Source of the DNA: a virus
Lineage: Duplodnaviria > Heunggongvirae > Uroviricota > Caudoviricetes
Direction: 5' to 3' (one strand)
Virus record (IMG/VR): IMGVR_UViG_2718218399_000002
Length of the DNA: 39,647 nt
Shown here: one piece after another, positions 3,001-6,000 of the stretch
Position numbering within the stretch: the stretch's first letter is position 1
Layout of the letters: each line of letters begins with the position of its first letter
Program-made: the position numbers

Positions 3001-6000
3001 AAATCACGACAGATACAGATACAGATAAAGAATTAAACCCCACACATAACGCGCGCATGCGCGAGAGTGCTACGACCGGTGAGTTGAATGACGCGTCGTT
3101 GCAGACAGCCGAACCTGAATACCTGGACGGCCTGAGCGAACCGATCGGGAAATTTCCGATGACTGGAGTCTGGCAACCGTCGCCGGATTTTCGACAGCGG
3201 GCAGCAGTGTGGGGTATGGCTCTGCCTGAGCCTGAGTTTACACCTGCTGAGCTTGCCGCATTCCGGGATTACTGGATGGCGGAGGGGAAGGTTTTCACGC
3301 AGGTTCAGTGGGAGCAGAAATTTGCCCGTCACGTGCAGCACGTCAGGGCACAGGTAAAACCAGTCAGCAAGGGGGTAAGCCATGCAGCACCAGGTGGCAC
3401 CGCATCACGGGCAGTTCAGGAAATTCGGGCAGCACGTGAACAGTGGGAACGTGAAAACGGATTTATCAGCAACGGAAACGGCCTGGAAGCTGTGGGAACT
3501 TATGGGGGAGGTGTATTCGAACCGCTGGACCCAGAAGAACGGGGCTGCGCCGTCGAAGCTCTGGATTGCTCAGATTGGCGCGATGACTGAACAGCAAATC
3601 CGGCAGGTCTGCCGTCAGTGCATGGACCGCTGCCGGGCGGGTGAAACGTGGCCTCCGGATCTGGCTGAGTTTGTGGCGTTGATTTCGGAGAGCGGGGCAA
3701 ATCCATTTGGCCTGACGGTGGATGCCGTGATGGAGGAGTACCGTCGCTGGAGGAATGAATCCTGGCGGTACGACGGGAGTGATAAATACCCGTGGCCACA
3801 GCCGGTGCTGTACCACATTTGCCTCGAGATGCGTTCAAAGGGGATTGAGCGCCAGATGACCGAAGGGGAGTTAAAACGGCTTGTGGAAAGGCAGCTGACG
3901 AAATGGGCAAAGCATGTTGGTAATGGCCTCAGTGTTCCGCCAGTCCGGCGACAACTGGCAGCACCCAAACGCCCGCCAGGGCCAACGCCAATTGAATTGC
4001 TGAAACAGGAATATGAGCGCCGGAAGGCGGCCGGTTTTGTCTGAGTTGAGAAGTAATTTTTACCGGGAGGAAAATTTAATGGAAACCGTTTTTGACGCAC
4101 TGAAAGCACTGAAAAAAGCCTCGTCGCACGAGATTGCAGCCCGTCTTGAAATCAGCCGTGACGATGCTGTTACCGAACTCTGGAAGCTGAAGCGTCGTGG
4201 CGAAGCTGATAACAAGGGGTCGATGTGGTGGCTGACGAGTGAGGCAACTGAAGCGGCCCCAAAAACCACTGCAGAGATGCTGATTAACGCGATTGAACAG
4301 CATGGTCCTCAGTCGGCTGACGAACTGGCGTTAATGTTCGGGATTACCTCCCGCCGGGCGAATTCATCACTGGCGATGGCTGTCAGCAAAGGTCGTCTGA
4401 TTCGCGTAAATCAGGACGGTAAATATCGTTACTGCATACCGGGCGATAATTTACCGGCAGAGCCGAAAGCTGCATCGGTAACGGAAACCGATGGTAAAGC
4501 CTTTCCTCAGCCGGCAGGTGTTGCGTTACCAGTCCGGGAAGCGGAAACACAGGAAGAAATTAAAACTGAAAGTGTGGCGGTCACAGTGCAGTCACAGTCG
4601 TCGTTCATCAGAAAGCATCCGGATGGTCTGATTTTACCATCGCTGCATGTGGCTAACCGCGAGCTGCGCCGGGCAAAAGGTCAGGTTCAGAAGTGGGAGC
4701 GCTTATGCGCCGCGCTGCGGGAAATTAATAAGCATCGTGATGTCATACAGAAAATAACGACAGGAGATAACGGGTAATTTTTACAGCAGGGTGATGATAT
4801 GAAAATCAGATATCATGATTTCGGCCCCGTGTCACATATGCTTATTTCAAGTACGGTGCTGGAAACAAGAAAACATAATCACATACTGGATATGCTGCGT
4901 CTTGCTGACCCGTATCTGGTAATAAACACCAGTGGAATTTTCTTTCTGAGAAGCACTGTGTCAGGAAAAACATCGCATGTGCTTCGGGCATATAAAACAG
5001 CAGTGCGGGAGGAAGGAGAATGAGCGAGATTAACTATCAGGAGCTGCGTGTTGAGCTGGGAGCAGCAAAAAAACGCATAGAAGAGCTGGAGGCTAATCGT
5101 GTGGTGCTTGAGGTGGAAAATGAGAGGTTGAAACACGCAATGGCCGTAGCCCTTGAGCATATATCCGTCACAGATGCAGGACAGGCAGGTGTCGCTGCAA
5201 TGATTATCTATGATGCCATGTACCACAGTGAAAAAACTGACCCCTACGCTTTTCTGGCAGAATTGCGGGCGCAGGGTGTGGAGATGGTGCGCGAACATCC
5301 AGCAATCAAACTTTGCTCTTTGACGCACATATGTGACGAGTTAGTCGCAGAGCTTCGCAAAGGAGGCAACAAGTGAGTAAAACGAATCCGGGCTGGGCAA
5401 GGCCACTTATGGCGAAAAAACATCATTATTTTGCTGAAGGTGAAATAACAAGTATTTGCGGTGGGTGGATGTATTTTGGCAATGAGCGTGAGCCGGATAC
5501 ATTCGAAAGTCCAGATGATTGTAAAAAGTGTCGTAGAAAATTAAATAAGGGGGGTAAATGAGCGTAATTAAAGAAATGCCAGTGGAACGTAATGAATATG
5601 GCTGCTGGACGCATCCTGAATATGAAAAATTCTGTGATGGTCGGGAATATATTTCAACGGAAGAGTTTAACGCCTGGATGGAGAAAAATAATCTTCAGTG
5701 GGCTATCCGTAGTATGGATGAAGATGATTTTAATCTGGACGCAGATGGCCCTGATATTTCAGCATGGGAACCTGAGCGACCAGAAGGTGAGGGATGGTTT
5801 ATCGGTTCGATACATGACACCGAAGATGGTCCTGTTTGTGTATGGCTGAGAAATAAGGCCGAAGCATAAAGGCTATAAACCAACAACTAAACACTGAAAA
5901 TTTAAATCAGAAATGATTTTTATTAAATCCTTAACCGGAGGGATTCCTGCACCCTCAGAACATCAGGAGACCGCCCGAAAGGGCGGTAGTGAAAAATGAC

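Follow-up and report, generated by a model that had tools for sequence, protein, structure and literature searches.

A putative split translation initiation region within a mosaic-junction leader of Escherichia coli lambdoid prophages

Gene content around the site

The sequence analyzed here (IMG/VR record IMGVR_UViG_2718218399_000002; 39,647 nucleotides [nt], hereafter the window) is a lambdoid prophage of Escherichia coli O157:H7 that carries espJ/tccP. We focused on the leader of one of its accessory genes, in which a Shine-Dalgarno (SD) sequence is separated from the start codon by a stable hairpin. The first 13 kb of the window, the aligned part that includes this site, is 99.9 to 100% identical to PV15-279 and other O157:H7 genomes, and espJ lies together with an EspF-repeat (TccP-like) gene at one end of the prophage. 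On the plus strand, the genes that lead up to the site are cro, a ydaT-like gene, an O-like (DnaT-like) gene, P, a DUF1627 gene, and four small hypothetical genes, and those that follow it are a hypothetical gene of 187 amino acids, sok/hokD, a DUF968 gene, rusA, Q, and three tRNAs. By this order, the site belongs to the early-right operon and falls in its accessory ("nin-like") region, in the interval between the replication genes and Q. cro is found 4 kb upstream of the site, and the replication genes are also upstream of it.

The open reading frame (ORF) directly downstream of the site (5996-6559, plus strand) codes for the protein of 187 amino acids. The ATG at 5996 is the first start codon of this ORF, and the same start has been annotated by RefSeq in a near-identical O157:H7 genome. 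The protein matches PHROG families of unknown function, and no match was found for it in Pfam. The stop codon that precedes the hairpin is located 126 nt upstream.

Anatomy and folding of the leader

The SD sequence AGGAG (5965-5969, plus strand) lies directly 5' of the hairpin ACCGCCC-GAAA-GGGCGGU (5970-5987), which has a perfect 7-bp stem closed by a GNRA tetraloop and is followed by an A-rich, unstructured spacer of 8 nt, AGUGAAAA (AGTGAAAA in the DNA; 5988-5995), and by the ATG (5996-5998). The gap between the SD and the ATG is thus 26 nt, or 8 nt when the 18-nt hairpin is looped out. The original prediction held that these elements are too far apart for normal initiation unless the hairpin folds; all of them can be read in the sequence, and the folded hairpin does give a normal effective distance. 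Folding agrees with this, as the isolated hairpin has a free energy of -14.1 kcal/mol and is retained in the predicted minimum free energy and centroid structures of both the 81-nt and the 191-nt contexts, while in ensemble folding its stem has a probability of being unpaired of 0.00.

The duplex of AGGAG with the 3' end of the 16S rRNA was calculated at -7.4 kcal/mol, and the cost of opening AGGAG at 1.2 to 2.0 kcal/mol. The sole proximal sequence that resembles an SD is AGGGCGGU (5980-5987), which belongs to the 3' arm of the stem and lies at 8 nt from the start codon. Its duplex with the anti-SD is of -7.8 kcal/mol, and opening it would cost 10.7 to 14.6 kcal/mol, so that the absence of a closer accessible ribosome-binding site (RBS), on which the original prediction depended, is borne out.

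Upstream of the SD, the leader contains several other recognizable parts, all on the plus strand. Most of the matches to other genomes cover a conserved core of 73 nt (5922-5994), which corresponds to positions 53 to 125 of the query used. Inside it we found the anti-SD-like pentamer UCCUU (5928-5932). This pentamer is invariant in 69 distinct homologs, even though the search anchor does not include it, and a weak pairing between it and AGGA (5965-5968) is predicted around an upstream hairpin, HP1 (5938-5956). HP1 was identified by folding and has a GAGGG/CCCUC stem and a 9-nt loop, AUUCCUGCA. This loop holds the sequence UCCUG (5945-5949), the exact complement of CAGGA (5964-5968). Both UCCUU and the UCCUG of the HP1 loop could in principle sequester the SD transiently, as an anti-SD mimic or by forming a pseudoknot.

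The 5' part of the intergenic module (5895-5927) is AT rich and has stop codons in the three frames (TGA at 5895, TAA at 5903, and TGA at 5914). At other loci (upstream contexts of 121 loci), this segment is a palindrome, CTGAATAATTAAATTCAG, whose stops (TGA, TAA, and TAA) cover three frames, and it is also where several distinct upstream genes end (for example, at L141:4985-5010). To judge from sequence, the segment resembles a "stop" half common to all the junctions, bearing in mind that AT-rich DNA yields stop codons easily. In this AT-rich segment, neither a promoter scan nor visual inspection revealed a convincing sigma-70 promoter. A small upstream ORF running through the leader was also considered and rejected, since it lacks a start codon (ATG, GTG, or TTG) and its frame is not conserved because the spacers differ in length.

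Occurrence of the arrangement

A GC-rich hairpin of 7 bp is not rare by itself, as about 2.2 with at least six GC pairs are expected in shuffles of 39.6 kb. We scanned for the whole arrangement, in which an SD core is directly followed by a perfect, GC-rich hairpin of 7 bp and, 4 to 10 nt after the hairpin, by a start codon that opens a reading frame. It was matched 44 times in the 7.0 Mb of E. coli prophage DNA scanned, always within this leader family, and never in the reversed/complemented control. Among 3.5 Mb of E. coli prophage DNA, no nonhomologous SD-hairpin-start site was detected except for a terminator artifact and one intragenic match. The arrangement is therefore not a chance pattern.

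The stem itself is less specific. The 16-mer CCGCCCGAAAGGGCGG recurs as the stem of intrinsic terminators in many unrelated viral contigs (IMG/VR loci L377-L496); among 121 of its copies without an SD, the next sequence is a T run in 60, and an ATG is found within the spacing range of the leader in 14. As CCGCCCGAAAGGGCGG is a generic terminator stem elsewhere, the prophage element is defined by its context only.

Distribution of the leader

By using positions 5870-6010 as a BLAST query against 5,426 complete E. coli genomes, the leader was matched in 2,651 of them, in up to eight places per genome and with roughly 4,800 copies in total. Most of these matches span only 5922-5994, and the genes annotated downstream vary (DUF7167, DUF4014, and hypothetical genes). 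Across thousands of E. coli prophage copies, this 73-nt core is 85 to 100% identical, while the genes differ on both sides. An SD-type sequence precedes all of the hairpin copies in the prophage DNA collected (355/355). Two scans of IMG/VR anchored on HP1, and hence unbiased with respect to the SD and the hairpin, provided 250 usable copies.

A second class of junction lacks HP1 and the AT-rich segment and reads ...SYHND* TAA TGTC [A/G]GGAGG-hairpin-spacer-start, which indicates that the SD-hairpin unit is independent of HP1. In the early-left accessory region of phage ArgO145, the two junction classes are each represented once, with 1 kb between the copies. The P1-like phage vB_EcoM-Ro157c2YLVW (L123:1495-1565) and a 97.7-kb E. 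coli plasmid (L124) carry a degenerate version (GGGAUG-hairpin-UAAUAAAA-AUG). Only a remnant ORF of 13 codons lies behind it, and the annotated gene starts another 27 nt downstream, served by a GGAG of its own; the unit has therefore moved into phage-plasmids, and it decays if unused. From the second junction class, ArgO145, and these phage-plasmid copies, we can define the minimal reusable unit as the SD, the hairpin, a short A-rich spacer, and the start codon.

We also observed orphan copies with no start codon after the hairpin (L125:1500-1600 and those of the L156, L272, L336, and L378 types). They are located at a boundary with convergently transcribed genes and have a moderately T-rich tail, GGUUUCAUUGUUU, and their SD is often mutated (AGGAA or AGTAG). 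These orphan hairpins may act as terminators at the end of an operon.

Outside E. coli, the distribution is narrow. Among the GTDB species representatives, the HP1 anchor was found only in E. coli and Shigella flexneri, besides random matches, which leaves no deep divergence for covariation analysis. Within INPHARED, nearly all the matches are to temperate phages of Escherichia, together with one near-identical record labeled as an Actinobacillus phage; weak matches of 19 to 24 nt (E = 0.6) correspond to phages of Klebsiella, Salmonella, and Erwinia. The leader module is absent from the Rac prophage of K-12. No match to Rfam 15 was obtained at the site, either with gathering thresholds (whole window) or at E values of up to 10 (5700-6200), and a full-text literature search on the hairpin sequence retrieved no paper.

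Spacing and conservation of the SD

The distance between the stem and the start codon was examined in 380 IMG/VR copies, counting a start codon if it opened an ORF of at least 30 amino acids. Such a start was present behind the hairpin in 314 copies, and those without it are mostly frameshifted versions of the same genes. The distance was 5 nt in 113 copies, 6 nt in 107, 7 nt in 2, 8 nt in 73, and 10 nt in 14, so that 295 homologs keep 5, 6, 7, or 8 nt, in keeping with the effective distance predicted for the window. The remaining 5 of the 314 were scored at 1 nt, with an earlier in-frame ATG inside the spacer. GTG replaces ATG behind the hairpin in 15 copies (TAATGAAAA-GTG-ACT-GAA..., L145-type loci), in which the 8-nt spacing is kept.

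The genes downstream belong to at least six unrelated families (DUF7167, DUF4014, MTELTKEW/MAELTKW, MTELTKEQ, MGITKER, and MQEIKEN). As the spacing of 5 to 8 nt is found with at least six protein families and at least eight spacer sequences, it has been held through independent junction events. In the family with a spacing of 10 nt (MGITKER...), a separate GGAG is found at 6 nt from the start codon, and most of the other families have A-rich spacers without an SD core. Without the distal AGGAG, the hairpin-linked families would have no SD. A proximal SD precedes 78% of the annotated genes of this prophage (median of -7.2 kcal/mol), and at such a rate several whole gene families without any SD would be unusual.

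DUF4014 junctions that are free of the hairpin read AAGGAG-AGTGAT-ATG, with a plain SD at 6 nt. Compared with AGGAG-[hairpin]-AGTGAAAA-ATG in the window, the hairpin amounts to an exact insert of 18 nt between a normal SD and its spacer. Moreover, conservation of the SD depends on the presence of a start codon downstream. Of the 78 distinct contexts with a linked gene, 75 have an intact SD core, compared with 5 of the 10 orphan ones (Fisher P = 3e-4, although phylogeny makes the contexts nonindependent).

Conservation of the stem

At the sequence level the hairpin is clearly conserved, with 95.7% of the stem cells paired in 69 distinct sequences. The common haplotypes among the 250 copies, all of them fully paired, are GCCGCCC/GGGCGGT (112 copies), the A variant of the window (34), GCCGUCC (30, in 7 contexts), and GCCGCCU (19, in 9 contexts), and each of the haplotypes that break a pair is present in three copies at most. 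Both GCCGUCC and GCCGCCU derive from C-to-U changes, which keep a U.G pair in the RNA of the plus strand and would be A-C mismatches in that of the opposite strand. This bias toward changes compatible with U.G pairing argues for a structure in the plus-strand RNA. One stem pair is fully compensated, from G-C to A-U, and both intermediates were found, while the loop variants seen were GGCA, UAAA, and AAAA. These sequences suggest selection for stem pairing. Thus, of the original expectation that homologous loci would conserve the hairpin with compensatory changes, the conservation stands, but compensation is limited to that single pair, with no excess of covariation over shuffles.

A probable split initiation region

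We consider it probable that the element works as a split (noncontiguous) translation initiation region embedded in a mosaic-junction leader. In this model, the 18-nt GC-rich GAAA hairpin would fold on the mRNA of the early-right operon, and the anti-SD of the 30S subunit would pair with the AGGAG immediately 5' of the stem. The stem-loop would bulge from the path of the mRNA, which would let the AUG, located 8 nt 3' of the stem base, enter the P site as it does at a normal spacing. Located at the mosaic junctions of E. coli lambdoid prophages, the leader would provide a ribosome site to any accessory gene placed downstream. Both the use of the distal SD by the ribosome and the need for folding are inferred. 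The leader has four of the features that define the T4-type sites, namely, the distal SD, the predicted stable hairpin between it and the start codon, an effective spacing within range, and no accessible proximal SD, and several independent but indirect lines of evidence favor the original prediction.

Several observations weigh against this model. Folding predicts that AGGAG is mostly paired with UCCU (5928-5931), with a probability of being unpaired of 0.14 to 0.35, although opening it is cheap. In the comparison of SD decay, the copies were chosen by the presence of the hairpin, and the units counted were contexts, not independent events. A formal test of covariation on the 69 distinct sequences was null (95.7% of stem cells paired and one double change, compared with 95.6% paired after the columns were shuffled), and recent common descent plus recombination could therefore explain the conservation. 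Several stem-disrupting haplotypes of one lineage (for example, GCCACCC/GGGCAGT) are found ahead of intact DUF7167 genes, which indicates that a perfect stem is not indispensable. Finally, the family is limited to Escherichia/Shigella, and this weakens the power of any comparison.

Alternative explanations

The leader could also be seen mainly as a mosaic junction at the DNA level, that is, a patch of homology for the exchange of accessory genes in which the hairpin is a palindromic insertion of 18 nt that translation tolerates and that does nothing as RNA. Both flanks vary around the 85 to 100% identical core, and homology ends either at the hairpin's 3' margin (5986-5988) or immediately ahead of the start codon (5993-5994), as in GGGCGG|CTGTTCC and GGGCGGT|GGAGATAATAATG. 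Orphan copies, hairpin-free versions of the ribosome site, and the lack of significant covariation also speak for such a patch. Nevertheless, we judge it unlikely as the main explanation, as it does not account for the fact that only U.G-compatible variants of the stem reach appreciable frequency, for the spacing of 5 to 8 nt across independent junctions, or for a decay of the SD that is confined to orphans. It is in any case compatible with a split RBS, and more a complement than an alternative to it, because the genes behind the junction still require a ribosome site. A more novel reading, which we likewise consider rather unlikely, is that the leader of about 100 nt is a self-contained "expression adaptor" for the shuffling of prophage genes, with the hairpin selected as an insulator and as an anchor for recombination. 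Here, the stops in three frames would end the upstream gene, and UCCUU and HP1 would be further parts of the adaptor, while the SD, clamped by the hairpin, would be shielded from the recombined flanks. If so, the accessory genes behind the leader would be translated at a predictable rate, making it a natural counterpart of synthetic RBS insulators.

The remaining explanations dispense with the distal SD or give the hairpin a different function. If translation did not depend on an SD at all, initiation would be mediated by S1 through the unstructured, A-rich spacer and start region, and AGGAG and the hairpin would be passengers. This region is indeed A rich and mostly unpaired, and about 22% of the genes of the prophage have no clear proximal SD. 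We find this improbable, given that 75/78 gene-linked contexts have AGGAG(G) directly against the stem and half of the orphans have lost it, and that the GGAG of the 10-nt family implies that these genes normally depend on an SD. Little more can be said for a hairpin that represses translation by masking the true SD, the imperfect AGGGCGGU (5980-5987), until the stem melts. Ideally spaced and with a duplex (-7.8 kcal/mol) on par with that of AGGAG, this sequence is a reasonable candidate; yet opening it costs 10.7 to 14.6 kcal/mol, and no upstream ORF comes near enough to unwind the stem because the preceding stop is 126 nt upstream. Masking also leaves the conserved distal AGGAG and its decay in orphans unexplained, and the paralogous junctions without the hairpin use AAGGAG rather than an SD resembling GGCGGU. 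An effect on the transcript, in which the hairpin would either terminate or attenuate transcription in the interval from the replication genes to Q or block 3' exonucleases and so stabilize the upstream mRNA, seems very improbable. The identical 16-mer is a generic terminator stem, with a T run after 60 of the 121 copies without an SD, and the orphans at the convergent-gene boundary have a moderately T-rich tail. However, none of the gene-linked copies has a T run after the stem, their tails being A rich (AGUGAAAAAUG in the window), and a terminator scan did not call the hairpin on either strand. An exonuclease barrier is conceivable but would leave the SD and the fixed spacing unexplained. 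Least credible of all is the idea that the hairpin is bound, like boxB, by an antiterminator of the N type or by some other RNA-binding regulator. The boxB of lambda is GCCCU-GAAAA-AGGGC, which GCCC-GAAA-GGGC resembles, and a translational operator could well be sited beside the SD, but no boxA (CGCUCUUA / UGCUCUUUA) with up to two mismatches is present in 5800-5995, other than a chance match in AT-rich sequence. In addition, no N gene is annotated in the prophage, the loop varies (GGCA, UAAA, and AAAA), Rfam gave no match, and the two copies of ArgO145 are 1 kb apart in one operon and far from promoters. A lambda-type nut site was rejected for the same lack of a boxA in 5800-5995 and for the position of the site, 4 kb 3' of cro and beyond the replication genes.

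Other features of the prophage

Compared with strain PV15-279, the window has an insertion of 1,309 bp at 13156-14463. Because an ALIL pseudoknot (Rfam RF01497, 14012-14128, minus strand) lies within it, the insertion is probably an insertion sequence of the IS3 family with its frameshift signal. Toward the end of the window (about 37997-38895) there are tandem repeats of about 141 bp, each with the palindrome GGAATATGTTCAGCCATATTCC, among which five perfect copies start at 38106, 38247, 38388, 38528, and 38669. The number of repeats differs between the window and PV15-279. They sit within the gene annotated as "EspF repeat-containing protein" that adjoins espJ, so they presumably correspond to the proline-rich repeats of a TccP/EspFU-type effector. 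In the region downstream of the 187-amino-acid gene, Rfam identified the sok antitoxin RNA, which overlaps the hokD leader directly 3' of this gene (6848-7172), and also the three tRNA genes 3' of Q and a match to the STnc100 small RNA (all these matches being within 6848-7172, 9938-10184, and 10958-11130).

Comparison with known systems

Split sites have been demonstrated in phage T4 (Nivinskas et al. 1999; Malys & Nivinskas 2009; reviewed in PMC3014915). The distance between SD and AUG is reduced from 22 to 5 nt in gene 38 by looping out 17 nt and from 27 to 11 nt in gene 25 by looping out 16 nt, and mutations that destabilize these stems reduce initiation (PMC3014915). The prophage leader is similar in having an SD more than 20 nt from the AUG and a hairpin that would restore the distance (here, from 26 to 8 nt), in the length looped out (18 nt), in the E. 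coli host, and in a hairpin kept only in close relatives. It differs in that there is no sequence homology and in its presence in temperate lambdoid prophages instead of T-even phages. A further difference is that it is a portable leader, found before at least six unrelated gene families in about half of the E. coli genomes and sometimes twice in the same operon. In a literature search on split RBSs, the only SD-hairpin-AUG cases found were T4 genes 25 and 38, the rest being work on rpmE and on standby sites. In the rpmE and thrS mRNAs of E. coli, a stable stem-loop interrupts the translation initiation region and is accommodated by the ribosome (PMC7297116). The prophage stem-loop is likewise stable and is proposed to be accommodated, but it differs in separating the SD from the AUG and is not known to have a binding protein.

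Two other kinds of element share traits with the leader. Terminators of the Rho-independent type can have the identical GC-rich stem with a GAAA loop, CCGCCCGAAAGGGCGG, but in the prophage leader the stem is preceded by an SD and followed by an A-rich spacer and a start codon, without a U tract. Lambdoid phages have conserved boundary (linker) sequences at their mosaic junctions, as seen in comparisons of the HK97/HK022/HK620 type. Like them, the leader is a short conserved intergenic stretch with unrelated genes on either side and breakpoints at its edges. Unlike them, it has an RNA anatomy (stops, anti-SD-like pentamer, HP1, SD, hairpin, and spacer) and is tied at a fixed distance to the start codon downstream.

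Implications

Very few split RBSs have been documented. If the model is true, this leader would be an abundant natural example, present in about half of the sequenced E. coli genomes, and a convenient system to study how much structure the 30S subunit tolerates between the SD and the AUG. Annotation and predictors of RBS strength would score the genes behind it as lacking an SD or as having a masked one. The split site would also bear on how accessory (moron-like) genes continue to be expressed while they are shuffled among the prophages of pathogenic E. coli.

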